Below are positions 354 through 62,868 of a stretch of DNA of 64,000 bases, one piece after another. The notes beneath the pieces were generated by a model. That model made no database searches. It had not been told where the DNA came from and worked only from the letters and a program-made list of their open reading frames with translations. Source of the DNA: a virus (lineage: Duplodnaviria; Caudoviricetes); the IMG/VR virus record IMGVR_UViG_3300013121_000017, positions 1 through 64,000 of that record; one strand, written 5' to 3'. A program made the translations under genes and the position numbers. How positions within the stretch are numbered: position 1 is the stretch's first letter; each line of letters starts with the position of its first letter.

Positions 354-730
354 CGACGCAGCTTGCTTAACGAGTCGATGTCAACAAAAGGTGATTTCTG
401 AGCTTCAGGCTCGGGAGGCGTGGTAACAGGTGTGCCACGCCTTTTTTCTTCCAGTTCCGCAATCAGCTTGGCATCTTCGGGTTTCTCTGGATGAAGAACC
501 TGTTCCTCGGAGATGGCGCAAATCTGACTGTAGAAGTAGTAGTTCTTGCAGCCGGTGATCGGGTGCAACGTCATGATACCCAACTCGTCTACCGATTCCA
601 CGACACCCAGAAAGTAATCGCATTTCTGACGTTCGTCAAAGTCACGGTTGATGGCAGTTGTGATGACGGTCACTGCCTTGCCGACGAAGTATTTGAGATT
701 CTTCAGAGCCTCTTTCATTGTGCCTTTCAA
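350..730 (-). CDS. hypothetical protein, possibly Sm/LSm-like beta fold
   Basis: 126 aa, coupled to the upstream gene. VGKAVTVIT...FLGVVESVDELGIM resembles an Sm1 motif (weak). Confidence 0.6.
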   Translation of the reverse strand: MKGTMKEALKNLKYFVGKAVTVITTAINRDFDERQKCDYFLGVVESVDELGIMTLHPITGCKNYYFYSQICAISEEQVLHPEKPEDAKLIAELEEKRRGTPVTTPPEPEAQKSPFVDIDSLSKLRR

Positions 731-2070
731 TGCGGCATCACGCCACGCTTACGCATCGACCGAATGTACTTGTTGATGTAGGCCATGTAGTCCTTCGGGA
801 CTGTCGGGATGCCTTCGGGGTTGGCCCGATACGGAGGTCGCACCGACAGGTTCGAGAACACGTCCATGTTCTTCAGGGGCTTACCGTTACCGTCCACCTT
901 GACGTTCCCCATTGCGTCAAAAACCACCACATCGTCATCATGCTCCATGCCAGGAACCTGGGGAAGGAAGCGGTCATATTCCCAGATCGTTCGCTGGTTA
1001 AGCGGGCGACGACCCATTTGCTTGATCAGGTCTGCAATGGCATTGTAACGCCGGGTGAGGTGGTTGTTGTGCTGGTTGTCCACGACGAAATTCACAAAGT
1101 TCGAGACGATCTCTGGTTCTGTGGTATAACCGCCGGCCATTGGGTGTAAGTCGTCGTCACGATGCGTGCCGTGCAGAATCCGCTTGAGCCGCTGGGCGTA
1201 GGCTTTGTCATCCTCGCCCTTCTTCTGCGGATTCTGCCGTTCGATTTCATGAACGGCCTTGGCCAGTTCGTGAGTCAGGTAAGTGCCATCCGCTGTATCA
1301 CTCTGCCACTGGGAAGCCGTGTTGAGTCTCTTTGTTCCGTTGACGCGGCCCATGTGTACTTGTTTACCCATACGCTGGGCCTTCTCGACAATAGCCTTGG
1401 CTTCGTCGCCGGTTTTGTACTTGTCGTCGCCGCCGATGAAGATCACATCCACCTTGTCGAACGGCACATTGTCAACCGTGGCCCCGTTCTGAATGCAGAT
1501 GGCCACTGGCGCACCGTAGCTGCGAAGTCGCTGAACATCCTCGGCATGTGCCTCGAACTTCTTCAGTGTCTTCTCCCAGTCAAACGGCTCGTCAGGAACC
1601 GTGAAGAAGTTGAGTCGCGGCAAAACCTCACGCTTCTCTTGGGCGAGTGCCAACTTGACCATCTTCTCGTACATGTTCCATGAAAAATTGTCCCTGCCCG
1701 CCTTAGTGAACATGCCGTTGTCGATACCGATGCTGTCAAAGTTGTGCAGCGTTTTGGTACGCAAATAGTGTGCGGTGAAGGGCTGGACGATGAGGCCCAG
1801 GCCAGAGAAGCCGTGTTCGGAAATGCGGCTGGCGGACATGGCCGCGTAGGACTTCGTCAACTGGCCGCTGAGGTATGTCGTGTTGTAGGCCGGCGCGATC
1901 TTGCGGTCGAGCTTCTTGCCGGCCAGAATCGGATTTGTGTCCTCAATCCACTTCTTCAGCATGCTGTTGAAGGTGGACTGCGAGACACGATCACTGATGA
2001 GGGCGTCGAAGATCTCGTCTTCGTAGTCGGCAGTGGTTGTCTCTCTGAGCAGTTTTCTGAAGGTACGCAT
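727..2070 (-). CDS. TGT/DpdA-like (tRNA-guanine transglycosylase-like) TIM-barrel protein with N- and C-terminal extensions
   Basis: Motifs IDNGMF, VPD, IQNG, IFIGG, VHMGRVN and DTADGT occur in the order seen in phage TGT-like proteins. Start placed at ATG 2070 (MRTFRKLLRE), 5 nt after TATATA. Confidence 0.55.
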   Translation of the reverse strand: MRTFRKLLRETTTADYEDEIFDALISDRVSQSTFNSMLKKWIEDTNPILAGKKLDRKIAPAYNTTYLSGQLTKSYAAMSASRISEHGFSGLGLIVQPFTAHYLRTKTLHNFDSIGIDNGMFTKAGRDNFSWNMYEKMVKLALAQEKREVLPRLNFFTVPDEPFDWEKTLKKFEAHAEDVQRLRSYGAPVAICIQNGATVDNVPFDKVDVIFIGGDDKYKTGDEAKAIVEKAQRMGKQVHMGRVNGTKRLNTASQWQSDTADGTYLTHELAKAVHEIERQNPQKKGEDDKAYAQRLKRILHGTHRDDDLHPMAGGYTTEPEIVSNFVNFVVDNQHNNHLTRRYNAIADLIKQMGRRPLNQRTIWEYDRFLPQVPGMEHDDDVVVFDAMGNVKVDGNGKPLKNMDVFSNLSVRPPYRANPEGIPTVPKDYMAYINKYIRSMRKRGVMPH

Positions 2071-2084
2071 GACCTTATATAGTG

Positions 2085-3119
2085 TCACTTCAGCCTCGCC
2101 GAGTAAGCGGTCGCCCCAAATGGGGACTCGGAATCCAGGGTTGTTTCCGCTCGGCGAACATACTCGCCGAGGATCTTGGCCCCGAATTTCTTGAGCATGT
2201 CATTCCAGTCGTTGAATCCTTCCGGCGGCTGTACCAGCCGCAGTTTGTCCTTGCCGAAGCGAAGACTAACACTGAGGATCTTTTCGGCCATCGCCCTGCT
2301 GCCCTGCTCTCCAGCCTTGTCGCGGTCCAGGCAGATAACGAGTTTGTAGTCGTTCAACAGGACGGCCTGCTTCTCGCTCAGGTTCTTGCCACCGGCTGCC
2401 GCTCCGTTCAATTCGGACAAACAGAGGCTCTTTGCATTGAACTCGCCTTCACAAAGATGGACCGTTGCGCCCGCCTCGGGCCATTTTCCATCTGGGAAGT
2501 AGACCACGTCTTCCTTGCCGACGCCGATCTCCTTCGGCGGTCCACGATATTTGAGCTTCGAGTTGCCGAAGTGCCGTCCGTTGAAGTAACAGAGCATCCC
2601 TTCGCGGTCGTAATACGGGATGATGATTCTGGCTTTGTATTTGCCACCTGTGCAGACGTACAGACCTTCAGAAGGCATCATGCGTGCGTGCAGGTACTCC
2701 CTGGCTTTTTTGCCCCACCAGTTGTCGAGGCCATCGATCTGGTAGCAGTCGTCCGGCAGGCTGATGCGGACCTTCGGTTTGTTTTCGATGAACGGCTTGT
2801 CGTACTCGGCAAGCATGTCCTCAACTTGCCGTTCCAGTTCGCGGATGTTTGCTTCGCCCTTCAACAGGGTGGTCGCCTCGTCATAGTCGATCTTGTCAAC
2901 CAACATGACGAGCTTGATGAGTGACCCTTTGGTGTCGGTCTTGAAGCAGTGAAAAACGCCATTCTCACGCTTCTTCTTGCCGCCCGAAGGGCTACACCAA
3001 AGGTGGTAGTTCGTGTCGGTCGTGAAGATCGAGTTGATGCGGATCTCTTTTCCCTTGACGACAGCGTCAGGGAAACGGTCCTCGCACCAATGCCTGAAAC
3101 GGTCGAAGTCAATCGCCAT
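2085..3119 (-). CDS. DNA primase (T4 gp61-like, TOPRIM)
   Basis: N-terminal Zn-ribbon remnant (FHCFK), RIIIPYYD, YFNGR, KY, and TOPRIM motifs CEGEFNA and LDRDKAG, ending FNDWND. Confidence 0.9.
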   Translation of the reverse strand: MAIDFDRFRHWCEDRFPDAVVKGKEIRINSIFTTDTNYHLWCSPSGGKKKRENGVFHCFKTDTKGSLIKLVMLVDKIDYDEATTLLKGEANIRELERQVEDMLAEYDKPFIENKPKVRISLPDDCYQIDGLDNWWGKKAREYLHARMMPSEGLYVCTGGKYKARIIIPYYDREGMLCYFNGRHFGNSKLKYRGPPKEIGVGKEDVVYFPDGKWPEAGATVHLCEGEFNAKSLCLSELNGAAAGGKNLSEKQAVLLNDYKLVICLDRDKAGEQGSRAMAEKILSVSLRFGKDKLRLVQPPEGFNDWNDMLKKFGAKILGEYVRRAETTLDSESPFGATAYSARLK

Positions 3120-3182
3120 AGTTCACCTTACGTCAAGAAGACGGTGGGGGTATAATAGTCGAAGACAGGAGGGCGTCTTTTC

Positions 3183-4976: not shown

Positions 4977-5261
4977 ATGCTCACCTTTCATGAATATGTG
5001 CGACTCCGAGAAACGGCTGGCGACTCCTGGGGGACCGCACCGGCCCCGCCGGTACAGATCATGCTCGGCCCCAACGCGCCTATCGCCGGCAACCTGACCG
5101 GATCAAAGCCGCCAACCGAAGACGAGCAGTACCCGCCCAAGGAACTAGAGCGTCAGAAACAAAAGAGAAAGCGGCGGGAGATTCGTACCCAGCCTTACGA
5201 CGACCCGAGAAAGTTGAAACGCGATGTTGAGCGTGCAAGAGAACTGGGTGTGGAACCATGA
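4977..5261 (+). CDS. hypothetical protein with a capsid-targeting-like N-terminus
   Basis: Starts MLTFHEYVRLRE; ATGA overlap with the next gene. Confidence 0.6.
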   Translation: MLTFHEYVRLRETAGDSWGTAPAPPVQIMLGPNAPIAGNLTGSKPPTEDEQYPPKELERQKQKRKRREIRTQPYDDPRKLKRDVERARELGVEP

Positions 5262-13879: not shown

Positions 13880-14424
13880 AGTTCACCGGCGACCTAAGCA
13901 TCAATGATGCCGAACTATTGGAACACTATTCCCGTTGTTCGTCAGACATTTTGGAGTTTGGTGTCGGCGGTAGCACACAGATATTCGCCCAAACTGCAAA
14001 GAAGCCGGGGCTTAGTCTTGATACTGATTTGAGATGGGTCAAGACGACCCAGAACAAAATCGATGAACTCGGTGTCTCATGGAATTTCAAGCCCCTCTTG
14101 GAGTGGGAACCATCTGGCAGTTACGACTTGGTGTTCGTTGACGGCAATGACGCATACAGACGAAGATTTGCCCATCAAAGTTTCCCTCTGCTGCGTGTGG
14201 GTGGACACATGATATTTCACGACACCAGACGAGCAATGGACATTGCCAATGTGACCAGTGTGATTGGGTTGCATTTCAACGAGATCGATGCAGTGTACTT
14301 CAATCAGTGGCACAGCAACATGACCGTCATCAGGAAGAAAACCAACGAGCCTTATGTCAACTGGCACAAGGTCGAAGGCAAGCCTGAGTGGATGTATGGA
14401 GAAATCAATGCCAAGCTACTTTGA
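13873..14424 (+). CDS. class I SAM-dependent methyltransferase
   Basis: ILEFGVGGST, DLVFVDG and IFHDT motifs. Confidence 0.8.
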   Translation: MVKFTGDLSINDAELLEHYSRCSSDILEFGVGGSTQIFAQTAKKPGLSLDTDLRWVKTTQNKIDELGVSWNFKPLLEWEPSGSYDLVFVDGNDAYRRRFAHQSFPLLRVGGHMIFHDTRRAMDIANVTSVIGLHFNEIDAVYFNQWHSNMTVIRKKTNEPYVNWHKVEGKPEWMYGEINAKLL

Positions 14425-15388
14425 ACAATACCTGACGCGGCGCGAACAGCCAACGGTAATTGTCGAAATGGAAGACTACCAACGGCAACTTTTCTCTCAC
14501 GCCCCCACAGAACAAGAGGCCGAGAACTCCTTGATGTTGCAGGTGGAAAACTCCCTGCCCGGCGAGATTGCCGCCATGATCGCGGCAGCCAGCAAGAAGC
14601 CCGGCAAGCTGAAGAAAGTTCCCAGCAGCCCAACTTCGGCAAATCTAAGGATTGTGGTGAACGGCGGGGAAGTACCCAACGCCTGGAAACCCCAGAGTGT
14701 GCTAAGGCAGACAGCCCTCAACATGGGCAAGCTCGGTCGCGTTTTGCAGATGGCGCACGGCAGCATTCCAAATTGGCATGGATCTAAGATCATCGTGATT
14801 CCCGCCCCGAGGATCTGGGCCGAGCCGGCGACCGATGGTATGGTCCGCGTAGACCGCTGTGGAAGCGGCAACACATTCAAGGCTGGCGTGTTGGGCAAGG
14901 GATTGCGAATGCAAGACGTAGGAAACAATCCTTTCGGTGCGTTCGACATGGACCAGAACGGCCAGGAGGACTTCCTGAATCTGATCAATACTCTGCGAGG
15001 CGGTTTCGAGTCGAAGCCGCGTTTGGTCAGGATGTACTTCCATGCTCCGAAGAGCATGCGGAAGAAACTGACCAAGGCTGGCCGTGAGGCGGCGGTGCTG
15101 AGGGCGGCATTCATCCCTCCAGTGCCACTGAAGGCAAAGAAAGAAAAGAAGGAAGGCACGGATCTCTGGCAAGTGCGGGTCGATGAGCGGCTCCTGGGCC
15201 TGCCGATTGACGACACCTATTGGCCTGCCGAAGACGAGCCTCTGGAAATCAGACACTTGGAAATGGTGACCCATGAAGCGACGGAACAAATGTCCTCTGG
15301 TATTGGAGATAGAGATCGACCTGACGGGGTTGGGACGGAGGGAGTACAACCGGAAGATCGACTTGTTGAACCAACTGATGAGAGATGA
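14408..15388 (+). CDS. hypothetical protein with a capsid-targeting-like N-terminus
   Basis: Starts MPSYFEQYLTRRE. Confidence 0.65.
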   Translation: MPSYFEQYLTRREQPTVIVEMEDYQRQLFSHAPTEQEAENSLMLQVENSLPGEIAAMIAAASKKPGKLKKVPSSPTSANLRIVVNGGEVPNAWKPQSVLRQTALNMGKLGRVLQMAHGSIPNWHGSKIIVIPAPRIWAEPATDGMVRVDRCGSGNTFKAGVLGKGLRMQDVGNNPFGAFDMDQNGQEDFLNLINTLRGGFESKPRLVRMYFHAPKSMRKKLTKAGREAAVLRAAFIPPVPLKAKKEKKEGTDLWQVRVDERLLGLPIDDTYWPAEDEPLEIRHLEMVTHEATEQMSSGIGDRDRPDGVGTEGVQPEDRLVEPTDER

Positions 15389-16474: not shown

Positions 16475-19033
16475 ATGACACCAGTTTGGGCAGACTTTTT
16501 CAAGATCTTCACCTACCAGTTCACGCCGGACCCATACAGCCGGCGTGCCAACACCCGTGACTTGAGGGGTGCGGGTGTAACACAGCCCGACGCCATCCCC
16601 ATGATGGGACCAGACGGTTCCATGCAAGGCGGCGGCGACTCAAGACTGGTCCGTTTCCGCGACACCAACGAAATGATCGACCTCTCGTCGGTCAGCAATC
16701 GCCAATCAAGATACAAAGAGTACCAGCGACTTCTCGGCGTCCCCGAAATCGACCGCGCCCTGACTGTCTTCGCCGACGAAGCATGCCTTGCTGGATGGAC
16801 CAAGGTCCAGACGCCGCACGGCGAATTCACCATCGAACAACTTGCCAAAAACAGGGCCAATGACCGCTTCCTCGTCTACAGTTACGACGAAGAGAAGGGG
16901 GACTACACGCTCGGGTGGGCATTTGCACCACGCAAGACAAAGACCGCCAAGACTATTTGCCTTGTTTTCGACAACGGGAAGACACTGACGCTTACCCACG
17001 ACCACCGCATCATGAAGCGGGACGGCAAATACATTCAGGCTGGCGAGGCCAAAATTGGCGACACGTTCATGCCGTTCTACCGCCTGCGTCCCAACCCAGA
17101 ACTCAACAAGCTCCGCACAGGCCAGCAGCCGCGTATTCGCACATTCCTGAAGGGATGGGTCAATGAACGACAATTCGTTGACGACTGGAAACTCGGCAAA
17201 ACCCAGGAACACTACGAGAAGGCAAACGAGATCGCCCGCATGGCGACTGACGGCCTTGTCATGGAACAGATCCTTCAGCGTGTGCCACACGACTGGAAAA
17301 CGATCAAGCTTCGGCTCGCCAAGGCGGGATTCACTTACAAGGAACTGAAAAAACTCGGCCAGAAGGAAGATTGTCGCAGGATAGTTGACATCCGCCCCGG
17401 CCCGGAAATTGACGTGTACGACATGTCTGTGGAGAAGTACCACAACTTCTGCACCGATAGCATCGTTGTCCACAACTGCCAGAAAGACGAGTTCGGCAAC
17501 CTATTCAAGATCGAGTGCGGCAACGCGGAAGTGCAAGACGAGTTGAAGCACTTCTTCTTCCACCGCCACGCCCTGAACATGAACCGCCGGGCGAGGACTG
17601 AGTTCTGGAAGATGTGTCTCATGGGCGACGTGTTCTGGGAGGCAATCATCAACCCGGAGAAGCCAAGCGACGGCATCTCGAACTTCGCAAGCTTGCCCGC
17701 CGAATCCATGTACCGCATCGAGACGACCAAGGGCAAACTCATCGAGTTCCAGCAAGCCCGTGAGGGACCAGACTACAACGCACTCGTTCGCGCCCCAATC
17801 ATGCAGTCCACGGACGCCGAGATTGCACAAAGCACTGCCATCCGTTTTGCCCCGGAACAGATCATTCACATCCGAATTGGCGACGAACGCAAGACGTTCT
17901 ATCCATACGGTGTCTCGCTGGTCGAGCCGGCCCGTGGTCCGGCCCACCAACTGAGGCTGATGGAAGACGCCATGTTGGTGTACCGTCTAAGCCGCGCCCC
18001 TGAGCGTCGTATTTTCTACATCGACGTGGGTCAGTTGCCGCCGTTCAAGGCTGAGGCATTTGTTGAAAGACTGAAGGACCAGTTCCGCAAGAAGAAGGTC
18101 GCAACCAACAGGTCGCCATACCAGGGTGCAAACCAAGTTGAAGAGCGTTGGCACGCACCGGCAGTTGATGAAGACTACTGGTTGCCAATGCGTAAGGACT
18201 CGCAGACCAAGATCGACACTCTGCCCGGCGCACAGAACCTGGGTGAGATTGACGACGCTGTGTACTTCAGGAACAAGTTGTTCGTCGCCCTGAACTTCCC
18301 GCCGAACTACCTGAGCAACGAAGACCCGAATGCAACTCGCATCACGCTGTCCTCGCAGGATGTGAAGTTCGCGCGTATCATCGAGCGGCTCCAGGGCCAA
18401 TTCGAGGACGGTCTGTGGGAGATAGCCGACCGTCATCTCCAGATGCTCGGTTACCCGCCGGACGTGTACGATGACTTGGTCATCAAAATGACACCGCCGT
18501 CCGACTGGCGCGAACTGAGCCGTGCAGAAACTACGAACAATCGTGTCACAACAGCCAGCAGTTTGAAGTCGGCACAGTTGATGTCTGACTACGATGTTCA
18601 TATCAGGTACTTGCGTCACTCGGAAGAGGAGACGCAGGAAATGATCGCACGTCTGAAGATCCAGAAGCTTGAAGAACTCAAGCTGCAAGTTCTGGCCCAG
18701 AACCCACAACTGTTGGGTGTTGGCACGCCGGGACAACAGGGCCAGGATGGTCAAGAAATCGGCTCGCAGGCCGGTGGTCCTAGCCCGATGTTGGGTGGAG
18801 ATCCGGGTGCGGGCGGTGCGGCCCCAGGTGGCGCACCACCAGCCCCAGGATTGGCGGCTGAGGAACCACCCGAAGGTGGTCCAGGCAATGCCACGCCCGA
18901 GGCGGGGCAAGCTCAAGGTGTTCCTCTGAGCGAACCAGAGGAAGAGGACATCCTCAAGTACGACCTTGAGATCCAAGACTACGACGCTGAACAGGATGTC
19001 GAGGACATCGACTACAGCGTCAACGACGACTAA
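16475..19033 (+). CDS. portal protein (T4 gp20-like) interrupted by an intein
   Basis: QLRLMEDAMLVYRLSRAPERRIFYIDVG, EDYWLP, IDTLPGAQNLGEID, YFRNKLF.ALN.P and KFARII.RLQ are T4-type portal motifs. Confidence 0.95.
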   Translation: MTPVWADFFKIFTYQFTPDPYSRRANTRDLRGAGVTQPDAIPMMGPDGSMQGGGDSRLVRFRDTNEMIDLSSVSNRQSRYKEYQRLLGVPEIDRALTVFADEACLAGWTKVQTPHGEFTIEQLAKNRANDRFLVYSYDEEKGDYTLGWAFAPRKTKTAKTICLVFDNGKTLTLTHDHRIMKRDGKYIQAGEAKIGDTFMPFYRLRPNPELNKLRTGQQPRIRTFLKGWVNERQFVDDWKLGKTQEHYEKANEIARMATDGLVMEQILQRVPHDWKTIKLRLAKAGFTYKELKKLGQKEDCRRIVDIRPGPEIDVYDMSVEKYHNFCTDSIVVHNCQKDEFGNLFKIECGNAEVQDELKHFFFHRHALNMNRRARTEFWKMCLMGDVFWEAIINPEKPSDGISNFASLPAESMYRIETTKGKLIEFQQAREGPDYNALVRAPIMQSTDAEIAQSTAIRFAPEQIIHIRIGDERKTFYPYGVSLVEPARGPAHQLRLMEDAMLVYRLSRAPERRIFYIDVGQLPPFKAEAFVERLKDQFRKKKVATNRSPYQGANQVEERWHAPAVDEDYWLPMRKDSQTKIDTLPGAQNLGEIDDAVYFRNKLFVALNFPPNYLSNEDPNATRITLSSQDVKFARIIERLQGQFEDGLWEIADRHLQMLGYPPDVYDDLVIKMTPPSDWRELSRAETTNNRVTTASSLKSAQLMSDYDVHIRYLRHSEEETQEMIARLKIQKLEELKLQVLAQNPQLLGVGTPGQQGQDGQEIGSQAGGPSPMLGGDPGAGGAAPGGAPPAPGLAAEEPPEGGPGNATPEAGQAQGVPLSEPEEEDILKYDLEIQDYDAEQDVEDIDYSVNDD
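16784..17476 (+). mobile_element. intein (231 aa) in the portal gene, with no recognisable intact endonuclease
   Basis: Block A CLAGWTKV, block B LTHDHRI, block F DVYDMSVEKYHNF and block G VVHN followed by Cys+1. Confidence 0.92.
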
Positions 19034-22743: not shown

Positions 22744-23085
22744 TCATTCACCGCCGCTCTCTTCGCCCCCTCCTTGAGAGTCCGCCGCATTCGGCGTGAC
22801 TTCGTCGCTATGTCTGTTTCCAAAGTCACCAAGACCTCGATCACTTCCAAGCGATGAACCAGACATGCTTCTCTTCAGGTCTTCAACAGAAGCTCTAACT
22901 TCTGCATCCTGCTCCGCGACCTTTTCAAGCAAACCCATCATCAGCTTGGGATGCTTGTGACAAACTACCTTAGCGATCTGCACCAGTTTTTGGCGTGTTG
23001 CTTCTCTATCACCTTGGGCGTTGTCGTGGTCCGTCGTGGTTTCTGCGTGTTCTCGTTTGTGAACATACTGCCTGAATGTTTTCAT
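22744..23085 (-). CDS. hypothetical protein with a capsid-targeting-like N-terminus
   Basis: Starts MKTFRQYVHKRE; GAGG RBS. Confidence 0.7.
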   Translation of the reverse strand: MKTFRQYVHKREHAETTTDHDNAQGDREATRQKLVQIAKVVCHKHPKLMMGLLEKVAEQDAEVRASVEDLKRSMSGSSLGSDRGLGDFGNRHSDEVTPNAADSQGGGEESGGE

Positions 23086-23277: not shown

Positions 23278-25128
23278 ATGAAGAGAAAACTGATCAAATT
23301 CGACGCTTTCCGCCGGATCGAAAACGATTCTTTGTCGTCGGCGGAAATCGAACTCACTGAGGCATCGGAAGTATTGGCAACGGCCCTTGCGGTCGATGGC
23401 CTGAATCTGCACTGCTTTGGCGAGAGCGATGTCACCTATGAGACATCGGATGGCGATTACGTCCACGCCAATTACAGCCTCCAGAAGAACCATCTTGTCT
23501 TCGAGAACATCGAGCAGTTGGTTATCGACAACGAGAGTGAGCGAGCCGAAGCTCGCAACATCCTGTCGGGAATCGTGGAGAGCCTGATGGACGAGAATGA
23601 GAACAAGGCAGCCAGTCTGTTCGACCAGTACATGGCCCTTCCTCACACCCGTCAAAACCTGAAGGAAGCCACCCTCAACGAGGGCAAGTCCAAGACTTCC
23701 AAGTCTAACCCGACTGGCAAGCATGGTCACGGCTTCGGCAAGCACCAACCAGAACATGTGGTCAAGGCCCGCATGCTGTCACGCAAGCGGACACTGAACT
23801 CGATGAGCGATGCAGAAAAGAAGCGCCGCAAGAAAGAGTCCTCAACCTTCCACAAGCAGAACAGCAACCCCCGCGCCCGTCTCTATGTCCGCAAGGTCAA
23901 GAAGAGCAAGGTCAACGAGTGGGCAGTCATGTCCGAGAACGTTCTCCAGTTCGTGAAGTTCCAGAACCTGGGTGGCGTTCTTCGTGAAACCAAGCTTCGT
24001 CACGACGACCGTGGCAACGTTGTTGCCGTGGCCATGCCGACGACCAAGCTCCGCAACGAGGGCAAGCTCCTGACCTTCAACTGGAAGGTGCTGGACCACG
24101 AAATCAAGTACAGCCGCAACGGTGCGAAGAACCTCCAGAACGAGGCCGCATTCGCCAAGGCAATCGCTGAACTCAAGCGTTACAACGCCGTATCCGACAA
24201 CGAAGGTCTTGAGACGACCCTGGAAAACATCGTCGCTCGCTGGCCGCAGTTGCTTTACCTCACTCACCAAGAGTTGAGCGAGCGGATCGCAATGGCCTTG
24301 GACAACGCCGGTGTTCAGAACTACGACGATCAGATGTGCGAGTTCATGGCCGAGGGCATCCTGCGGATGGCCCACCACGCCTACTCTGACCGCGCCGACA
24401 AGATTGTCAAGTTGAGCCGCATGTCCGCCGAGGGCGAAGACGCTTACGAGGCATTCCGCTCCGTGGCCGACACGTTCCTCCCGCAAATGGACGAAGCCGA
24501 GAACGCTCAATACCGCGTCTTCGCTGACCTCTACCGCGCCCTGCACGAATTCTACGAAGTCGTGGAGAAGGAAGGCGACGAGGCAATGAAGCAGGAAGTC
24601 TTTGCGTACATGAAGGATTGCGAAGGCATCCTCAACCGCCAGGACGAGCCGGATCTCGAACTCGCCGAAACCATTGCTGTGTTCCTCCACTCGCTGGTCG
24701 AAACCAACATTGACGGCGAAGAGTGGAAGGTGTCGAACGACGTTCACACCACGATCAGTGGCGACCACCCGCGTATGGCTCAGTTGGCCAAGTGGGGCTA
24801 CACGCCTGCAAACGACTTCTCCGGTGACTGGGGTTCGGAAATGCCTGTCTCTGACGGCAAGAACCCGAGGAACAAGGCCGAGGTCGAGAAGATGAAGAAC
24901 TCCTGGGCCAACATCGGCGGCAGCGATACTGCCCCTGAGTTGACGAACCCATACATTCCGAAGCCATTCGGCGACTACAAGATGAAGGGCGAGAAGTCCG
25001 TGGTGGACGACAACGACGCCACTGGCGAGTGGGGTTCCAAGGACACTTGGCCGGCTCTCCAGAACCCGTATGTGCCGGATGCAGTTCGTCCTCCGATGAA
25101 GAGTGACAACCTCGTCCAAGACAAGTAA
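23278..25128 (+). CDS. putative prohead core/internal head protein
   Basis: 616-aa acidic helical protein directly upstream of the protease-scaffold-capsid genes; several [LIV]-x-E sites. Confidence 0.6.
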   Translation: MKRKLIKFDAFRRIENDSLSSAEIELTEASEVLATALAVDGLNLHCFGESDVTYETSDGDYVHANYSLQKNHLVFENIEQLVIDNESERAEARNILSGIVESLMDENENKAASLFDQYMALPHTRQNLKEATLNEGKSKTSKSNPTGKHGHGFGKHQPEHVVKARMLSRKRTLNSMSDAEKKRRKKESSTFHKQNSNPRARLYVRKVKKSKVNEWAVMSENVLQFVKFQNLGGVLRETKLRHDDRGNVVAVAMPTTKLRNEGKLLTFNWKVLDHEIKYSRNGAKNLQNEAAFAKAIAELKRYNAVSDNEGLETTLENIVARWPQLLYLTHQELSERIAMALDNAGVQNYDDQMCEFMAEGILRMAHHAYSDRADKIVKLSRMSAEGEDAYEAFRSVADTFLPQMDEAENAQYRVFADLYRALHEFYEVVEKEGDEAMKQEVFAYMKDCEGILNRQDEPDLELAETIAVFLHSLVETNIDGEEWKVSNDVHTTISGDHPRMAQLAKWGYTPANDFSGDWGSEMPVSDGKNPRNKAEVEKMKNSWANIGGSDTAPELTNPYIPKPFGDYKMKGEKSVVDDNDATGEWGSKDTWPALQNPYVPDAVRPPMKSDNLVQDK

Positions 25129-25148: not shown

Positions 25149-25826
25149 ATGTCGAATGAGCGTCTGCTAATCGACTGCTGCACCAACGGTCACTTCATGT
25201 TGAACTTGAACGAAGCAGCCAGTACCTCTGGTAACGGGCTGACCAAGTTCAAGGGCAAGTTTCAAGAGGCTGAGGCAGTCAACAAGAACAAGCGTCTGTA
25301 CCCGTATGCGGTACTGGACGAGAACGTCAAGAAGTTGATGGAATGCGTCAAGGCCCGTGGTCTGATCGGCGAACTCGATCACCCCACAGACAGCATCATC
25401 CACTTCGAGAAGGCATCCCACGTCATCACGAAGCTTTGGTGGGAAGGTAACTCCCTCATGGGCGAGGGGGAAATCCTGAACACGCCTCATGGCCGCATTC
25501 TGAAGAGTCTCATCAACGATGGGATTCGTATCGGAATCAGCAGCCGTGGCGTGGGCAACGGAACAGTTGATGAGAACGGCATTTTGGTTATCGGCGAGTC
25601 CTACAAGCTGATCACCTTCGACGCCGTTGCTGATCCGTCCACATTCGCCGCTTTCCAAGAGAAAGTCGTTAGCGGTAAGCGGGAATCGTTTGAACCCGTT
25701 GAAACTACGACGAAAAAGACAAGCAGCGGCATACATACATCTGCGATCAACAAAGATGCACTGATTGCCTGCTTGGGCGGACTCGTCAGACACCAAACTT
25801 CCAAGATAAGAGCGAGGTTTAACTAA
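25149..25826 (+). CDS. prohead protease (T4 gp21-like)
   Basis: NKNKRLY, GELDHP, GISSRGVG and FDAVADPS catalytic motifs. Confidence 0.95.
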   Translation: MSNERLLIDCCTNGHFMLNLNEAASTSGNGLTKFKGKFQEAEAVNKNKRLYPYAVLDENVKKLMECVKARGLIGELDHPTDSIIHFEKASHVITKLWWEGNSLMGEGEILNTPHGRILKSLINDGIRIGISSRGVGNGTVDENGILVIGESYKLITFDAVADPSTFAAFQEKVVSGKRESFEPVETTTKKTSSGIHTSAINKDALIACLGGLVRHQTSKIRARFN

Positions 25827-26728
25827 TGGACAGAATTCTTGAAGCACTTCGGAAGCTGCTCCCCGAGGATCAACTCAACGAAGTGGCCGGGGCAATCAAG
25901 GCCGAAGTCAATCAGGCCCGCAAGGAACTTGAAGCGGAGTACAACTCGCAGCTTGAGAAGGCATACGCCGAACTCAGCGAAGAGTTGGCTTCTGCGGAGA
26001 AGACCGCCTACCAGGGCTACCAAGAGGCATACGGCATTATTGCCGAGCTTCGCAACCGTCTTGAGACGCAGCGTGACGAGTTCAAGGCTGCTCTCGATGA
26101 AGGTTACGAGGAAGCGTACCAGATGCTTCTCGCCGAGCGTGAGAAGAACCGTACCCTCGAAGTCGAGATGTACGAGGAGTACGACAAGAAGCTCGCTGAA
26201 ATGAAGGACTACATGGTTGACAAGCTCGACCAGTTCCTCCAGTTCAAGGGCGCAGAAATCTACGAGCAGGCCAAGAGGGACGTGATGAACGACCCGCGTA
26301 TGGCCGAACACAAGGTCGCCCTGGACAAGATCGTGGAGATCGCAGGCAACTACCTGTCCGACGAGGATTACGCATTTGCTACCAGCCACAAGCTGGAAGA
26401 GACTCGCAAGTCTCTGGAAGATCTGCGTGGTCAGCTTCGGATCATGGAAGCCCGCAATATCCGTCTGTCTACGGACAACACCAAGCTCACTGAACAAGTC
26501 CGTCACGCTGCCCAGGCCATCAATGAGTCCCGCAAGGTGACCACTGAGAGCCGCCGCCGTGAGACGGCAAAGAATGAAAGAACTGAGAGAGTTGAACGTT
26601 CACGCAATGCGTCGGGGAGAGGCCACACACACACGGAAGAGGGCGTCGTGATCGCGGAGTACGCGAACAACGACTCTTCTGAGATCAACGAACTTCTCGT
26701 CCTCTCGGGCGTGAAGAACGGAAAGTAA
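25826..26728 (+). CDS. prohead scaffold protein (T4 gp22-like)
   Basis: Glu-rich coiled coil between the protease and capsid genes; ends ELLVLSG. Confidence 0.8.
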   Translation: MDRILEALRKLLPEDQLNEVAGAIKAEVNQARKELEAEYNSQLEKAYAELSEELASAEKTAYQGYQEAYGIIAELRNRLETQRDEFKAALDEGYEEAYQMLLAEREKNRTLEVEMYEEYDKKLAEMKDYMVDKLDQFLQFKGAEIYEQAKRDVMNDPRMAEHKVALDKIVEIAGNYLSDEDYAFATSHKLEETRKSLEDLRGQLRIMEARNIRLSTDNTKLTEQVRHAAQAINESRKVTTESRRRETAKNERTERVERSRNASGRGHTHTEEGVVIAEYANNDSSEINELLVLSGVKNGK

Positions 26729-28341: not shown

Positions 28342-28629
28342 ATGACTAACAACAGACAAACCGCAATGATGTGGAACTCCCTGGTCTGGAGTTTCATCTA
28401 CTGGCAAATCGAAGCACAGGAACGGCGTCAGCGTCGTTGGGACAAGTTCATGTCTTGGTTCTGGTCTTGGGCCTACACTGACCCTCATGGTTGGGCCAAG
28501 CTCAACCGTCGCGTCGAACAGATCACTTGTTCTTCGCCACCCACTGTTCCAGAGCCTGCCAAAACTTCTCAGGCTCCTCATAAGCCATCGCGTTCTTCAA
28601 GCGATGGTACTCCTTCCAGTACCGCTTGA
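28342..28629 (+). CDS. hypothetical Trp-rich protein
   Basis: Fills the gap after the terminator, with TTGACA at 28296 upstream; its 3' end overlaps the convergent J-domain gene. Confidence 0.35.
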
Positions 28630-29056
28630 TGTACTTCTCTGACTTGGTTTCCATCGCAGCCCATAGATCAATCTCTGGCGGCTCAGGCTCATACTTGGCC
28701 ATCGGCCTGGGAGCGGGCCGAGGCTGGGGACGTGGCTTCGCAGCATGGGGACCAATGGGATCGCCCCAGATGTCGTGAGTAGGCGGCGGTGCATCCCTGA
28801 TCCAGTCGTCCTTCGACCTGGGCTTGGGCGGCTTGGTCTGGTACGTTTGCTTGTACCCAGGCTGCGTCTGGTGCGGCTGACGCTTCTCGTCGGACAGCCA
28901 CTCAAAAGCCTCCTGCACCTTCTTGAATATCTCGACGGCTTCCAGATCACCCGGATTGCGGTCAGGGTGGTACTTCATCGCCATGCGGCGATATGCCTTC
29001 TTGATTTCCTCCTGTGTTGCGGTCGGAGGTACACCTAACGTCTCATGGTATCCCAT
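28523..29056 (-). CDS. DnaJ (J-domain) protein with a Pro-rich linker
   Basis: YHETLGV...[20 protein letters not shown]...F..VQEAFE.LSD; TACATA-N5-ATG. Confidence 0.9.
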
Positions 29057-29083: not shown

Positions 29084-29087
29084 GGAC

Positions 29088-38068: not shown

Positions 38069-38815
38069 TTATCTCCTGGCCGTGTTCTTCTCGAATGTCA
38101 CAAGGTAATGCTTCAAGGTCGGAGCCAACTTCTCCCACCCCGCGTAGAACTTGTTCCAGGCTTCGATAAGATCGGCATGCTTATCAGAGTCCTTGCACTT
38201 CTGGACTAGCTCATCCACCTGCGGGAAAATCTTGTAGGCGTCCTTCATCCGCATGATGTTGGTCTGGTAGTTGACGACGTGCGGCTTTGAAGACTCGTTC
38301 ATGTGCAGGAACTGTCGGAAGTTCAACCACAGCTTCGCAAGCGATCTGCACGGCTTGTCAAGCCATACAAACAGATCGGCGCACATATCAAGAAGCGTCT
38401 CCATTGAGTCTGCGTCATGCTCGTAGGTGACGTTGAACCTCTTGCGAGCTTCTTCTGGCGACATGTATCCCGGTGTACCCTGAGCGTCCACCCTCGCCTT
38501 GCCGTCCTTCCTCCGGTCGAGGAGTGCGCCATCGAGGCCGGGCTTGCCTGCATACTGCGGGTATCTCCTTGGGTCCGGCGGGCTGATCAGGAGAGAGATC
38601 TTCTGAATCAGCGTGGCGTCTTCGGCTTCCCATTCGTGAGGCGTGTTACTCACAGTTGACGCGGTTCCGCCGCCCGGCGTGGTGTTCTGGGCGTGACGCG
38701 ACACCATCTGGTCAGTGCGGCTGCCTGATTGTGCTTTGTCAACCCATACAGCCGTAGCGTCAGGATCTTCCTCACGACGGTTCAGGTCTTCCAGCCATTT
38801 TTTGAAGCCATTCAT
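38069..38815 (-). CDS. hypothetical protein with a capsid-targeting-like N-terminus
   Basis: Starts MNGFKKWLE; TAGATA-N6-ATG. Confidence 0.7.
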   Translation of the reverse strand: MNGFKKWLEDLNRREEDPDATAVWVDKAQSGSRTDQMVSRHAQNTTPGGGTASTVSNTPHEWEAEDATLIQKISLLISPPDPRRYPQYAGKPGLDGALLDRRKDGKARVDAQGTPGYMSPEEARKRFNVTYEHDADSMETLLDMCADLFVWLDKPCRSLAKLWLNFRQFLHMNESSKPHVVNYQTNIMRMKDAYKIFPQVDELVQKCKDSDKHADLIEAWNKFYAGWEKLAPTLKHYLVTFEKNTARR

Positions 38816-38885
38816 GAAAGGTATCTATTGACAAGAAGGCCAGAACGGACGATATAGGATGCAGGAACTTCAACCGGAGGAAAAC

Positions 38886-54021: not shown

Positions 54022-54621
54022 TCAGTCGATTTTTCGCGCCTTGCTGAGGTACTGCGAATCACGTTCGTCACCATCTGGTTTCCAGATAATAATTCCGTAG
54101 TGGTCGTAGTCTTCGCCGTCTGCGTCTTGGTCGTACCACCGCTCATCGAACTCTTCGTAGGTGAGGTAGCCACGCCGACCCTTCAGAACCGGGTCTTCAA
54201 AAAAGATGGCCTCGTCGTCGTAACCTATTGCCACGACGTAATGTCCGCTCTGCCGCTTCTTGTAGTATTTCTTCGAGCCGTATGCCTGGATGGGAACGAT
54301 GACGGGCCGCTCAAGGTCGAGCATGTTCTTCAACTGTCGCACCGTCATGTTGTGTTTCTGTTTAACGCAAAGGCCGTAGTCTCTGGCGGTTGCGACGATG
54401 TCTTTGGGGCGAGTTCCGTCGTGGTAGTTGGTGTTCATCATCTTGATGAACTTCTCTTCTTCGTCGGGGCCGACCTTGAAGTATTGGAAAATGGATCTCA
54501 GCGCGGCAGCCCCACAAGAATACTTGGTGGTTTGCCGCACACTTTGGAGCGGAACCTTGATGCTGTCTAGGATTTCCCGCTTCTCCATGATGATCCACAG
54601 CTTGAACGACGGAACTCTCAT
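54022..54621 (-). CDS. C39-family cysteine peptidase
   Basis: VRQTT.YSCGAAAL, GT.P, GHYVVAIGYD and FEDP motifs; TAAATA-N5-ATG. Confidence 0.9.
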   Translation of the reverse strand: MRVPSFKLWIIMEKREILDSIKVPLQSVRQTTKYSCGAAALRSIFQYFKVGPDEEEKFIKMMNTNYHDGTRPKDIVATARDYGLCVKQKHNMTVRQLKNMLDLERPVIVPIQAYGSKKYYKKRQSGHYVVAIGYDDEAIFFEDPVLKGRRGYLTYEEFDERWYDQDADGEDYDHYGIIIWKPDGDERDSQYLSKARKID

Positions 54622-54634
54622 GGGGGTATTTAGG

Positions 54635-54865
54635 TCACCTCTTGGCCATCTTGGATGGGGCCGGGGCCGCAGCCCCTCCACCAGCGGCTCCACCGCCACT
54701 GGCACACGGACCCATCGTTCCCGAGCAACCTTTGTTGTCCTTCTTGTAGCTTTTGCCGAAACGGTCTTCTGCACTCTTCTGGGGCGTGCGGGTATACGGA
54801 TGGCCTGGGCAGCCCATCGTTCCGCACGATTCTTCCGTTTTCAGCCAGTCTTTGAAGTCACCCAT
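54635..54865 (-). CDS. small Cys/Gly-rich protein with a capsid-targeting-like N-terminus
   Basis: Starts MGDFKDWLKTEE; TACATA-N5-ATG; two C/GTMG/C motifs. Confidence 0.7.
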   Translation of the reverse strand: MGDFKDWLKTEESCGTMGCPGHPYTRTPQKSAEDRFGKSYKKDNKGCSGTMGPCASGGGAAGGGAAAPAPSKMAKR

Positions 54866-54870: not shown

Positions 54871-54876
54871 TATGTA
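54871..54876 (-). promoter_or_regulatory. TAnATA putative late promoter (TACATA-N5-ATG), representative copy
   Basis: The same hexamer recurs with the same spacing before at least 12 starts (see findings). Confidence 0.6.
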
Positions 54877-57277: not shown

Positions 57278-57694
57278 GTGCGTTTCGGAACTTGGCTGGA
57301 GGCTGTTGAGAGGTCACGCACCTTCTACCGTGGCTTCAACCCTGGTGACACCCGGCGAATCAAAACCGGATTTGGCCTCTGGGATTCGTTCTTGTTTGTC
57401 GCCGATAATCCAAAGAGTGCAAGTGCTTACGGCCACACCATCGAGGTCTGGCAGGCCAAACCATCGGCTCACATCGTTTACGAAGGTTCAAAAGAGTTCA
57501 GATCCCTGGCCAAGGGATTGACATCCAAGAAGCTGACCTGGGGCCAGTGGTGCGAAGAGATTGCCAAGCGTGCGGTCGCCGCCGGCAACATTGACGCCTT
57601 GTGGTTTCAGAGGCAGACCGACATCGGTACGGCCATCATCAACAAAGACCAATTCGAGCGTGTCGGTATCTTGGACGACATCAATCGTCTATGA
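57278..57694 (+). CDS. putative ADP-ribosyltransferase-fold protein with a capsid-targeting-like N-terminus
   Basis: Starts MRFGTWLEAVE; FYRG...LFVADNPKSASAYG resembles ART strands 1 and 2. Confidence 0.5.
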   Translation: MRFGTWLEAVERSRTFYRGFNPGDTRRIKTGFGLWDSFLFVADNPKSASAYGHTIEVWQAKPSAHIVYEGSKEFRSLAKGLTSKKLTWGQWCEEIAKRAVAAGNIDALWFQRQTDIGTAIINKDQFERVGILDDINRL

Positions 57695-58250
57695 CAATCT
57701 TCTTGCTGGGAATCGTTTTGTCTAGTGAAGGTCGAGAGGCAGGACTTTTCTCTGCTTTCTCTGCTTTCTCTGCTTTTTCAGAGTTGATCTTGATCCGGTA
57801 GTAGTGAATCTGAATTCCGTCTTCAGGCACGTCAACAGTTCGGTTCAAAGAAACCATAGAACAAGACATCTGGTCGCGACCAAGACACTTGGCAAGAGTT
57901 GATACGGCTCGCCTCTCGCCAACGTCGTTCGCATTCTTGAAGGCACGCTTGAAGTCGCTCTTCTTTGTTTCCGCGTCAACAATCACGGGAACCTCAACGT
58001 AGTTCTCGCCGATCTCTTTGATGGAAAGATCGAAGCTTTTGCCACTGGTCGATTTGTAGCTCCCAGACTGCAAGTTGATCTGGTCTGCCTGCTTGTACAT
58101 CTTTGGCATGGTCGGCATGTCTTGTGCGTGTGCGTCCCCGCCCCCGCCAAACAATGAAGCCATACTCAACAAGCCTGCGCCTACAGAACTACGCCACCCT
58201 TCATCAAACTGTGGGTCGCGTTCTTTGAGCCATTCGTGAAATTGTTTCAT
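57681..58250 (-). CDS. hypothetical protein with a capsid-targeting-like N-terminus
   Basis: Starts MKQFHEWLKERD..FDEGW, followed by a hydrophobic/Gly stretch; AEK three times near the C-terminus. Confidence 0.7.
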   Translation of the reverse strand: MKQFHEWLKERDPQFDEGWRSSVGAGLLSMASLFGGGGDAHAQDMPTMPKMYKQADQINLQSGSYKSTSGKSFDLSIKEIGENYVEVPVIVDAETKKSDFKRAFKNANDVGERRAVSTLAKCLGRDQMSCSMVSLNRTVDVPEDGIQIHYYRIKINSEKAEKAEKAEKSPASRPSLDKTIPSKKIVIDD

Positions 58251-58262: not shown

Positions 58263-58796
58263 TTAGTTGACCACATTTGCATCTTGAAGTGCCTGGAATA
58301 GCTTGATGAGATGCTTGCACATCCCTGGCATCTCCAGCGGGTTGGCTTTCGGACCACCCTTGCCCTCGTACTTCTTTCGCTTGTTCCCATAAAGGGAAGC
58401 GTCCACCCAGTCGTAGTAGTTGAACCTCCACCGGAAATCGGCACAGTCACAGCGAACCATGACATCATGGCCGTCGTGCTTCAACTGCTCGAATGCGTAT
58501 TGTTTTTCATCGCTGGCAACGATCTCGACCATGCCCGCGCCGGGATCACCATACTTGACGCCCTTGAAGAGAATCATGGGTCGGTACTCAGTACCCTTGT
58601 CTGTGTTCTGGGCAAGGCTGGAGATGAAGAGGGTCTTGACGCCTAAATAAGGAACCCACTCCAAACGCACAATTTTGATCGGATCGGTTGCGTGCTGACG
58701 GTAGCGTGTGCGTGGGAAAGCTTGCACCGTGCTGGTGTACAGTTCGGTGCTGGTGCTTTCAGCCAGCCATTGGCCAAAGTGGAGTTGGTGGTTCAT
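58263..58796 (-). CDS. SWIM-type Zn-finger protein
   Basis: VRCDCADF...NP...PGMCKHL; TAGATA-N5-ATG; HFGQWLAE near the N-terminus. Confidence 0.7.
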   Translation of the reverse strand: MNHQLHFGQWLAESTSTELYTSTVQAFPRTRYRQHATDPIKIVRLEWVPYLGVKTLFISSLAQNTDKGTEYRPMILFKGVKYGDPGAGMVEIVASDEKQYAFEQLKHDGHDVMVRCDCADFRWRFNYYDWVDASLYGNKRKKYEGKGGPKANPLEMPGMCKHLIKLFQALQDANVVN

Positions 58797-58828
58797 CGAA
58801 ATATCTAGTGGCCGTGCTATCTTATGAC

Positions 58829-60996: not shown

Positions 60997-61828
60997 TGCT
61001 CTTCATGAAGGCGTCTTCTTCCTGAGCCTTCAGATCGTAGTATTCGTTGATCGCGTAGCCAATGTACGCACGCCAGTCGTGGTAGTGCTTGGCCCAGGCA
61101 AACTTCTTGTTGTCCTTGCCCGAATTGACGTACCGCTGAATCTCGTCGTGGGCCTGCTGCCAGTGGGCCTTCTTATCCCACCAATCATGGCTGTGAAGGT
61201 TGTCGCCCTTCGAGGCATCTCCACGCTTGTGCGCCATTTCCTTTTGTTTCCCGATGTGGGCGGCACGCATGGCGACCCACTTGTCCCACTCAGGCGTACC
61301 TTCCTGCGGTAGCGACTTCAGCCATGCGGCATGTTCGTCGTCAACGGCTGGATGGTCATCAGAGTGGGTGGTCGGCCTGTTGGCACTGACCACGCCAGGA
61401 GGCGTCTCACGTCTCAACTGCCGGCGGCTCTTGCCAAGATCGGCGATAGACTGGGATACATCCTCTTTGGAGATCTGGTCGATAATCTCTTCCAGGGCGG
61501 TGAGGTGATGTTCCATCGCACTCATCCGCTCGTCAATCGCATCGAACTTCTTGCCGTAGATCTCACGCAGGATGTTGCGAAGCGTAGTCGTCACGTCGGC
61601 ATTTCCAGTTTTCTGGACACCGAGATGCTGCGGTTCAGCAAGTGCTTTCTTGAAGTCGCGGAACAGGTGCAGAATATCTTGACCGGGCTTGGCTATCGCG
61701 GAGAGAAAGCTCTCCATCAGCTTGACGCCCTTCTGGTGAAACTCCGCTGCTTTGCCTGTTTCGTGGACGTAAGAACGCACACTGACCGCCTCGTTGACGG
61801 GATACAGGGTGAAGTTCTTTCTCATCAC
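60962..61828 (-). CDS. hypothetical protein
   Basis: 288 aa, coupled to the upstream gene; AGGAG RBS. Confidence 0.7.
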   Translation of the reverse strand: MMRKNFTLYPVNEAVSVRSYVHETGKAAEFHQKGVKLMESFLSAIAKPGQDILHLFRDFKKALAEPQHLGVQKTGNADVTTTLRNILREIYGKKFDAIDERMSAMEHHLTALEEIIDQISKEDVSQSIADLGKSRRQLRRETPPGVVSANRPTTHSDDHPAVDDEHAAWLKSLPQEGTPEWDKWVAMRAAHIGKQKEMAHKRGDASKGDNLHSHDWWDKKAHWQQAHDEIQRYVNSGKDNKKFAWAKHYHDWRAYIGYAINEYYDLKAQEEDAFMKSIMPPKPKAGYM

Positions 61829-62868
61829 TTTCTCCTCCTGCGGGTTGTCGGAATACCAGCCAAGACAAGTGCATCGGCAAAAAAGTTCTCGCTAATGACA
61901 TTTCCACGACGGTGATAGTGATCCCTGCTGGTATCCATTTCCTTGCGATGTTTGTCGGCAAGATACCTGCCAACCTTTTCCCACTTGGCCTTGTCGTCAG
62001 CAGCCTTGTCGCCGGAAGAAGGATGGGTGTCGAGGATTTTCTTGATTTCTGGATCGTGACCTGCGGCCCCAGTATTAGCTGCATGAATAGCGTCACTGAC
62101 GACCTTGGGATCGGTAGCATCTGGATCACCACCATAACCACCGCCAGTACCACCACCGCCAGTACCACCACCGCCAGTACCACCACCGCCAGTACCACCA
62201 CCGCCAGTACCACCACCGCCAGTACCACCGGCAGTACCGTCATCTTCTTTTGGTATCGGTGCTAGTTCTTCGTCGCCCTTCAGACCAGCCAACTGTCCCT
62301 CAAGCTCCTGAACGTAATTCGGATCTCTCTTGATGGCGTCGGCCACCTGAAGCATCCTAGACTTCTCGCTCAGGTTTTTCATGGTTGACAGGACACCATC
62401 AAGTTCTTTGCTGAACTCATCGTATCCTTCAACACCACTGCCCTTGGTTTGTTGAAGATCCTCGGGGATTTTGATGGTCTTGACGACGCTGGCGACTTTG
62501 GTCATTGACGTAAGTGCCTTGTCGAAGTTCTTGGCCGCGCCACCACCACTGAAAAGATCCTTCAACCAGTCAAGAATGCCGCCATGTGGAACTTCGCCCG
62601 GTGGACGGGCGGCATCTCCCTTGGTAGATGCCGCCGCATCTGTCGCTGGTTTTTCACCTGCGGCAGCAACTGTCGGGCCGGGAACAGCATCCGCCTCCAA
62701 ATAGAATGCTTCGAGGAGCGGCTCATACAGGTGCGGGAAGCGTTCCTCGGCAAAATCCAAAATGAACTTCTGAGGATCTTCAGTCTTACGCGCCAGTTCT
62801 CTGGACACCTCACCTAGTTTGAGGAGCCGGCTGCGATCCGACATGTAAGTTTTGAACTTCAGCATCAT
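61825..62868 (-). CDS. hypothetical protein with a (GGGGT)n linker
   Basis: 347 aa; starts MLKFKTYM; LLE/YLE sites. Confidence 0.7.
   Translation of the reverse strand: MMLKFKTYMSDRSRLLKLGEVSRELARKTEDPQKFILDFAEERFPHLYEPLLEAFYLEADAVPGPTVAAAGEKPATDAAASTKGDAARPPGEVPHGGILDWLKDLFSGGGAAKNFDKALTSMTKVASVVKTIKIPEDLQQTKGSGVEGYDEFSKELDGVLSTMKNLSEKSRMLQVADAIKRDPNYVQELEGQLAGLKGDEELAPIPKEDDGTAGGTGGGGTGGGGTGGGGTGGGGTGGGGTGGGYGGDPDATDPKVVSDAIHAANTGAAGHDPEIKKILDTHPSSGDKAADDKAKWEKVGRYLADKHRKEMDTSRDHYHRRGNVISENFFADALVLAGIPTTRRRRK
62137..62226. repeat. six tandem copies of the 15-nt unit ACCACCGCCAGTACC
   Basis: Directly visible; encodes the Gly/Thr linker on the minus strand. Confidence 0.9.

Follow-up and report, generated by a model that had tools for sequence, protein, structure and literature searches.

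Unrelated proteins of a huge T4-like phage share a short N-terminal tag that may be a capsid targeting signal

Introduction

Why should a dozen proteins with unrelated bodies, scattered along one stretch of phage DNA, begin with close variants of the same short peptide? The question is raised by the 64,000-nucleotide sequence analyzed here (the window), which covers the initial 64 kb of one 261,680-bp virus record (IMGVR_UViG_3300013121_000017, completeness rated at ~52%) from an uncultured, giant, T4-like phage of wastewater. The counts described below as genome-wide cover the 261,680-bp record, that is, about half a genome. Among the genes of the window are those for a large terminase of the T4 type, a Portal_T4 portal, a prohead protease (Peptidase_S77), a scaffold-like protein and a major capsid protein of the Gp23 family. 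The latter shares 78% identity with its counterpart in a 595-kb uncultured phage (LR756511.1) and about 30–44% with those of cultured T4-like phages; at least 372 relatives are present in IMG/VR, and wastewater and activated-sludge runs contain near-identical sequence. An original prediction picked out 12 N-termini in the window as carriers of a portable, capsid-targeting-like tag, and all 12 are in place, ten of them canonical and two (those of the genes starting at 2070 and 62865) looser. The answer favored here, to which we assign a probability of about 60%, is that the tag is this clade's version of the T4 capsid targeting sequence (CTS) and that the tagged proteins are loaded into the capsid.

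A tag shared by at least 31 genes

Genes were called independently of the motif, and starts were corrected later for the count of tag carriers; after this correction, at least 31 genes on the record begin with M-x(0-8)-F-x-x-[WYF]-[LVIM]-x(0-4)-E. The strict core of the motif, F..[WY][LVIM].{0,4}E, occurs 27 times in the 80,797 residues of the called proteome, and 19 of these 27 occurrences lie within the first 8 residues of a protein, compared with 0.32 expected from the rest of the proteome. The regular expression of the original prediction matches 19 of the 389 unadjusted gene calls; when residues 2–22 were permuted in 1000 rounds, the mean number of matches was 0.27 and the maximum 3, so that the predicted enrichment over shuffled N-termini is indeed observed. 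The same excess extends to the relatives. In 80 related loci, retained from the at least 372 IMG/VR relatives and showing capsid identity of 81–96%, 58 of the 106 core occurrences are N-terminal (1.7 expected), the tag is abundant throughout a large clade of related huge phages, and many of the tagged proteins in these relatives start literally with M-K-T-F.

The composition of the tag is highly constrained at three positions and looser at the fourth. The first aromatic is residue 3–9 of the protein, mostly 3–4, and is F in 30 of the 30 aligned tags; three residues later there is always another aromatic (W in 20 tags, Y in 5 and F in 5), which in all 30 is directly followed by an aliphatic residue. 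The first Glu lies 1–5 residues beyond the aliphatic one in 29 of the 30 tags, and exactly 2 beyond in only 5. This conservation is at the level of the peptide: because the aliphatic position is encoded by nine different codons and Phe by both of its codons, the tag is selected as a peptide and not as a nucleic acid. Orthologues in the nearest relative keep the key tag residues, with neighboring residues changed.

The tagged genes are dispersed along the record, with two denser patches at 54–67 kb and 147–154 kb, and encode proteins of 64 to 447 amino acids that range from acidic to basic (isoelectric point 4.2 to 10.8). None of the recognizable replication and structural genes of the phage has the tag. 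With the first 20 residues removed, a BLASTP comparison of the tagged bodies yields no pair at E <= 1e-3, and the sole body match in the whole called proteome at E <= 1e-2 is that between 88471–88716 and 83444–83680; otherwise, comparison of the tagged proteins with all proteins of the phage gives matches at the level of the tag only, and none of them matches its structural proteins. A profile built from the 31 members finds a few more variants (e.g. those at 83444, 83688, 96437 and 177916). Two of these, the small neighboring genes 83444–83680 (+) and 83688 (+), have a variant tag with Ala after Trp (F-x-x-W-A), and the former is a paralogue of the tagged gene 88471–88716. The primase (2085–3119) obtains a weak score with the tag profile, lacks the aliphatic residue and was not counted.

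The tag matches the mapped positions of the T4 capsid targeting sequence

The CTS that T4's internal proteins carry was reportedly described by Mullaney and Black in 1996. In the T4 record, IPII and IPIII begin with MKTYQEFIAE followed by Ala, IPI begins with MKTFKEF and is longer, and gp24 begins with MAKINELLRE. Packaging of IPIII requires only the first ten residues, among which positions 4 and 7 are involved in targeting, and positions 8 and 10 in processing (PMC9026906, section 2.6). All four of these positions, i.e. the two aromatics, the aliphatic residue and a nearby Glu, are conserved together in the phage tag, which bears out its description as capsid-targeting-like.

The likeness to the CTS of T4 IPI, IPII, IPIII and Alt (reviewed in PMC9026906, PMC3012670) goes beyond these residues. 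In both cases, an extreme N-terminal peptide of about 10–19 residues with the 4/7 arrangement of aromatics, the aliphatic residue next to them and then Glu heads unrelated bodies, and a protease of the gp21 family is encoded; furthermore, T4 packages the ADP-ribosyltransferase Alt, and one of the tagged proteins here has a probable ADP-ribosyltransferase (ART) fold. The differences are substantial as well. Half a genome holds at least 31 carriers here, whereas T4 has a handful; Trp is the usual second aromatic and the spacing of the Glu is variable; many of the genes have a promoter box abutting the ATG; and among the cargos are a CCA-adding enzyme, a C39 peptidase and a phosphatase. The T4 CTS is backed by experiment, whereas the present system is known from sequence alone.

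The tag as a detachable module

The relationship between the tag and the proteins that carry it can be gleaned from the tagged CCA-adding enzyme encoded on the record. In the alignment of this enzyme with its homologues, the tag is a block of ~10 residues ahead of a conserved segment, and the untagged homologues begin exactly at that segment. At the DNA level, the tag is found in 27 of the 80 viral loci that encode the enzyme, and others are without it, also in the upstream frame; in one phage of the same capsid clade (G003), the enzyme is untagged and a stop lies four codons upstream. In a group of AT-rich phages, the CCA-adding enzyme bears a different leader, M-K-x-x-I-K-x-I-L-R-E, which resembles the T4 gp24 propeptide and also heads 39 distinct, mostly unrelated reading frames (loci L124–L179, about 35% GC); this clade seems to have a tag of its own. 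A similar distribution is observed in the family of the ART-fold protein encoded by 57278–57694, where the closer homologues are tagged and those at about 50% identity are untagged. In AlphaFold2 models, the tag is a short helix (predicted local distance difference test values of 74 and 42) before bodies at 82–98, and structural alignments to known folds begin at residues 4–14. Judged from these comparisons, the tag is a detachable module on unrelated proteins. The portability claimed in the original prediction is thus upheld, by the lack of similarity between the bodies and by the gain and loss of the tag as a module among homologues.

Tagged genes and their cargos

The tagged genes of the window, followed by three from elsewhere on the record, are listed below; ‘box' denotes the TAnATA element discussed in a later section.

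727–2070 (-): 447 amino acids, loose tag; TGT/DpdA-like by a language-model lead only; TATATA box at 2076–2081
4977–5261 (+): 94 amino acids, basic, no family
14408–15388 (+): 326 amino acids, no family
22744–23085 (-): 113 amino acids, divergent from the head operon; position and tag kept in 32 distinct relatives
29088–29501 (+): 137 amino acids, no family; TAAATA box at 29078–29083
38069–38815 (-): 248 amino acids, no family; TAGATA box at 38822–38827
54022–54621 (-): C39-like cysteine peptidase, 199 amino acids, E = 8e-14, domain from residue 23; TAAATA box at 54627–54632
54635–54865 (-): 76 amino acids, Cys/Gly-rich, basic; TACATA box at 54871–54876
57278–57694 (+): ART-fold protein, 138 amino acids, GTG start with a Shine-Dalgarno sequence; tag residues 1–9 unpacked in the model
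57681–58250 (-): 189 amino acids, exact T4 geometry (aromatics at 4 and 7, L8, E10)
58263–58796 (-): 177 amino acids, SWIM-like CxC...CxH pattern; TAGATA box at 58802–58807
61825–62865 (-): 346 amino acids, loose tag, Gly-rich repeat; first Glu far from the core
201090–202373: CCA-adding enzyme; PolyA_pol head domain from residue 41; hundreds of viral homologues
154310–155002: NIF-type phosphatase, recognized by Pfam
149957–150400: sub-threshold hint of GNAT only

In the three cargos that are recognized by Pfam, the domain starts 22–40 residues after the Met, and most of the other cargos have no family match. The start of 4977–5261 is less certain because there is an in-frame ATG 21 nucleotides upstream. 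The functional assignments made in the original prediction fare differently. The C39 peptidase is confirmed by its family match. The call of ART-like cargo holds moderately for 57278–57694, all 50 listed structural matches of which are ART-superfamily chains, among them RES toxins, MbcT, ParT, diphtheria toxin, PARPs and an anti-CRISPR protein (6kyf). At the top of this list is a match with Z of 7.2 and a root-mean-square deviation of 4.5 over 104 aligned residues; the Foldseek search gave E > 1e-3. One of the structural neighbors is a chain of a cyanophage pre-ejectosome, a curiosity that is not used as evidence. For the SWIM protein (58263–58796), the CxC...CxH pattern is visible and there is no Pfam match, and for the TGT-like call (727–2070), the language-model lead is the sole basis. 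In one relative (L020), the orthologue of the latter protein, at 62% identity, has a canonical tag at its N-terminus. The first 15 residues of the 727–2070 protein resemble the T4 gp24 propeptide, hence the possibility that this is a gp24-type vertex protein was considered; it was rejected, with no body similarity to T4 gp24 or to the capsid protein of the phage itself.

The head operon, the prohead protease and a tagged neighbor

The head operon, next to which one of the tagged genes is located, contains the following genes.

23278–25128 (+): first gene of the operon, 616 amino acids, no known family; TATATA box about 90 nucleotides upstream
25149–25826 (+): prohead protease, Peptidase_S77 (T4 gp21 family), E = 5.3e-28; phrog_207, E = 4.6e-49
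25826–26728 (+): scaffold-like acidic protein, 300 amino acids, flanked by the protease and capsid genes; assigned solely from position and composition
26760–28232 (+): major capsid protein, Gp23 family

The gp21-like protease of the original prediction is thus identified as a member of Peptidase_S77, and by analogy with T4 it is a candidate for the enzyme that removes the tag. An L-x-E cleavage rule for this protease is plausible because potential sites of this kind are present in two head proteins. The N-terminus of the capsid protein (26760–26792, +), conserved in 44 relatives, contains F7-L8-x-E10-A11 and further L-x-E sites, and that of the scaffold-like protein, which has no family match and is located as gp22 is in T4, contains I-L-E followed by A. 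The capsid F7-L8-x-E10-A11 has the geometry of residues 7–11 of the T4 IPIII tag, and position 4 of the capsid protein is not aromatic.

In the 32 distinct relatives, the small gene corresponding to 22744–23085 is found beside the operon of the 616-amino acid protein, protease, scaffold and capsid genes. The first seven residues of this family are almost invariant (M, K and F are invariant or nearly so), and the remainder of the protein goes down to ~20% identity. At the C-terminus, K-G-L-G-D is kept by roughly half of the family or more and is followed by P-N-x-A-D, where A-D is invariant.

A promoter-like box abutting the start codon

The TAnATA sequence occurs at 135 sites on both strands of the record, which is below the composition-based expectation. 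Nevertheless, at 53 of these 135 sites, a start codon that opens at least 40 codons is located within 2–9 nucleotides, with a sharp mode at 5 nucleotides; no conserved -35-like element was found upstream of TAnATA. The box precedes 16 of the 31 tagged genes, compared with 19 of the 369 others (odds ratio 19.6, p = 4e-11). The count of six tagged genes with TAnATA ahead of the ATG, given in the original prediction, is correct for the window, the genes being those that start at 2070, 29088, 38815, 54621, 54865 and 58796. The 80 related loci show the same peak of spacing, with 103 sites at 4–5 nucleotides, 38 of them tagged. The genes for the terminase, the portal and the papain-like protease, as well as the head operon, also have the box, here 16–90 nucleotides upstream and together with ordinary Shine-Dalgarno sequences. 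The box ends 4–5 nucleotides before the ATG of ~30 genes without a Shine-Dalgarno sequence (e.g. 29078–29090, 54619–54632 and 58794–58807), and this arrangement is clade-wide and extends beyond the tagged genes.

The T4 late promoter, TATAAATA, occupies positions -13 to -6 (PMC1524935). TAnATA is the same as the last six bases of this promoter and, like it, has no -35 element and lies upstream of structural operons; unlike the T4 promoter, it commonly ends 4–5 nucleotides before the ATG, so that transcripts would begin at the start codon or right beside it. Since the box also heads structural operons, it is probably a T4-type late promoter, and one that yields leaderless mRNAs: when TAnATA is aligned to the last six bases of TATAAATA, transcription would, with the 5-nucleotide spacer, begin at the A of this codon. 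Late, leaderless transcription of half of the tagged genes would follow from this alignment. The tag itself is independent of the leaderless arrangement, as eleven of the genes that carry it lack the box and have a Shine-Dalgarno sequence.

Probable capsid targeting and the alternatives

Capsid targeting is the best reading of the tag because of the combination of the match to the T4 determinants, the family of the protease, the conserved head-adjacent member, the modularity of the tag and the shared promoter box. The tag is a short N-terminal helix with two aromatics three residues apart, followed by an aliphatic residue and a nearby Glu; the proteins that carry it would be made late, many of them as leaderless mRNAs from their own ATG-abutting late promoters, and would be docked by the tag onto the scaffolding core of the assembling prohead. 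Peptidase_S77 would then cut off the tag after a Glu during head maturation, and the mature proteins would remain with the DNA, to be delivered into the next host.

Several observations weigh against this mechanism. The phage clade has no cultured member, and a literature search, of incomplete coverage, found no virion proteome. The position of the Glu varies and an [LIVM]-x-E site is present in only 13 of the 31 tags (42%, compared with 84 of the 367 other N-termini, or 23%), so the T4 cleavage rule is not uniformly followed. The CCA-adding enzyme is an unusual item to package. When compared with the closest relative, tagged genes show no significant excess of divergence or absence over other genes. 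A search with T4 gp55 detects no homologue on the record, which shows little because the record is only ~52% complete. Four wastewater RNA libraries contain the region as low-depth contigs that cross gene starts, with possible DNA content, and no transcript ends were obtained from these contigs. T4 gp61.1, a 54-amino acid hypothetical protein encoded next to the primase gene (NC_000866, 18966–19130, -), shares the first 21 nucleotides of its gene (M-K-T-F-K-E-F) with ipI, and the T4 record does not list it as a head protein; hence the motif alone does not prove packaging. Finally, a search limited to the literal spelling M-K-T-[FY] found it in none of KVP40, S-PM2 and the Flavobacterium phage immuto, so that the likeness does not establish common descent with the T4 signal.

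Some of these same observations would be accommodated if the tag docked to something else, such as a phage or host chaperone, a protease (with the tag acting as a degron), a modifying enzyme or another assembly, and the likeness to T4 resulted from convergence on a generic amphipathic helix. This is the main rival, which we consider unlikely and nonetheless deserving of serious attention: it is in line with the variable position of the Glu and the T4 cleavage rule being followed in only 42% of the tags, with the motif in gp61.1, with the patchy distribution of the motif among T4-like phages, and with the nature of some cargos, such as the CCA-adding enzyme, that are expected to work in the cytoplasm. 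However, this reading has to be set against the joint conservation of the four T4-mapped positions, the tagged gene that is fixed beside the head operon across the clade, and the strong link between the tag and a promoter-like box that heads structural operons; moreover, no gene was noticed as a partner whose occurrence follows that of the tag, although no systematic search was made.

A far less probable explanation is that conservation acts on the nucleic acid, the tag region being a 5' coding element on which leaderless late mRNAs depend for their translation or stability, and the peptide a side product. That half of the tagged genes start 4–5 nucleotides after the box, without a Shine-Dalgarno sequence, is compatible with such an element, but the eleven tagged genes with a Shine-Dalgarno sequence and without the box, and the nineteen box-bearing genes without the tag, dissociate the two features; besides, nine codons are used at the aliphatic position and both at F, orthologues keep the residues whereas codons and flanks change, and the tagged genes of T4 itself are not leaderless. 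Least credible of all is that the motif arose by chance, or that the carriers are a paralogous family sharing only N-termini. Nothing more than the shortness of the motif speaks for this; the shuffle and position tests, the lack of body-to-body BLASTP similarity at E <= 1e-3, the restriction of the match at E <= 1e-2 to the pair 88471–88716/83444–83680, and the differences in Pfam families and folds among the members speak against it. The nucleic acid-level explanation and chance are effectively excluded.

Other systems and the scale of the phenomenon

The variable internal-protein loci of T-even phages were reportedly described by Repoila et al. in 1994. At these loci, different basic proteins have CTS-like leaders (PMC9026906, section 3.1), and, as in the phage clade studied here, one leader is combined with interchangeable, fast-changing cargo; the leader may be a handle for cargo swapping. 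The T-even loci, however, are one or few and encode small basic proteins, whereas here the genes are dispersed and encode proteins of 64 to 447 amino acids, acidic to basic. Another parallel is provided by the giant phages phiKZ, 201phi2-1 and SPN3US, whose heads contain numerous internal proteins that a prohead protease related to that of T4 processes after Glu, and in which the propeptides of head and ejection proteins are cut by this gp21-related enzyme (PMC5694885). In contrast to the tag, these propeptides are mostly >100 residues long, have no one shared short tag and are cut at A/S/G-x-E, and only eight head proteins are processed in SPN3US (PMC5694885).

The idea that T4-like phages can use the CTS to load a variety of proteins has already been published (PMC9026906), and the mechanism itself is that of T4, already known. 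A full-text search, of incomplete coverage, found no paper on large sets of CTS-tagged proteins in huge phages. The present case differs in its scale (half a genome with at least 31 carriers, and a whole clade with the tag), the enzyme cargos, the clade-specific leaders on the same enzyme and the promoter-ATG-tag cassette. Taken jointly, these features allow a broader proposal, which is tentative: the injected proteome of a huge T4-like phage clade could be read out from one short tag. Under this proposal, a T4-type targeting peptide would bring dozens of proteins per genome, about 8–10% of the genes, into the capsid, among them the ART-fold protein, the CCA-adding enzyme, the cysteine peptidase and the phosphatase. 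A cassette of ~45 bp, composed of the late-promoter box, the leaderless ATG and the tag, would give a captured gene both late expression and head loading. Other clades would have their own leaders on the same enzymes, so that the tag would co-evolve with the head core.

If the tag has the function of its T4 counterpart, sequence alone could suffice to list the proteins that are brought into the cell by uncultured huge phages, which would yield a direct catalogue of candidate factors of takeover and anti-defense acting in the first minute of infection and would explain part of what large capsids and genomes serve for. The tag with the abutting promoter would then be a compact natural capsid-targeting module, akin to the T4 tool that already serves to deliver proteins. 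Apart from the tag, the apparently leaderless late mRNAs are a trait of this clade's gene expression that can be tested in its own right.

Other genes of the window

Several other genes of the window have features of their own. In the portal protein (16475–19033, +; 852 amino acids), an Intein_splicing match at residues 156–334 precedes the Portal_T4 domain. The gene 28523–29056 (-), located shortly behind the capsid gene, encodes a 177-amino acid protein with a J-domain-looking N-terminus and has its own box 5 nucleotides before the ATG. The gene 29858–30634 (+) encodes a papain-family (Peptidase_C1) protein and has a box 16 nucleotides upstream together with a Shine-Dalgarno sequence, and 35378–38068 (-) encodes an 896-amino acid tail-fiber protein with collagen repeats.

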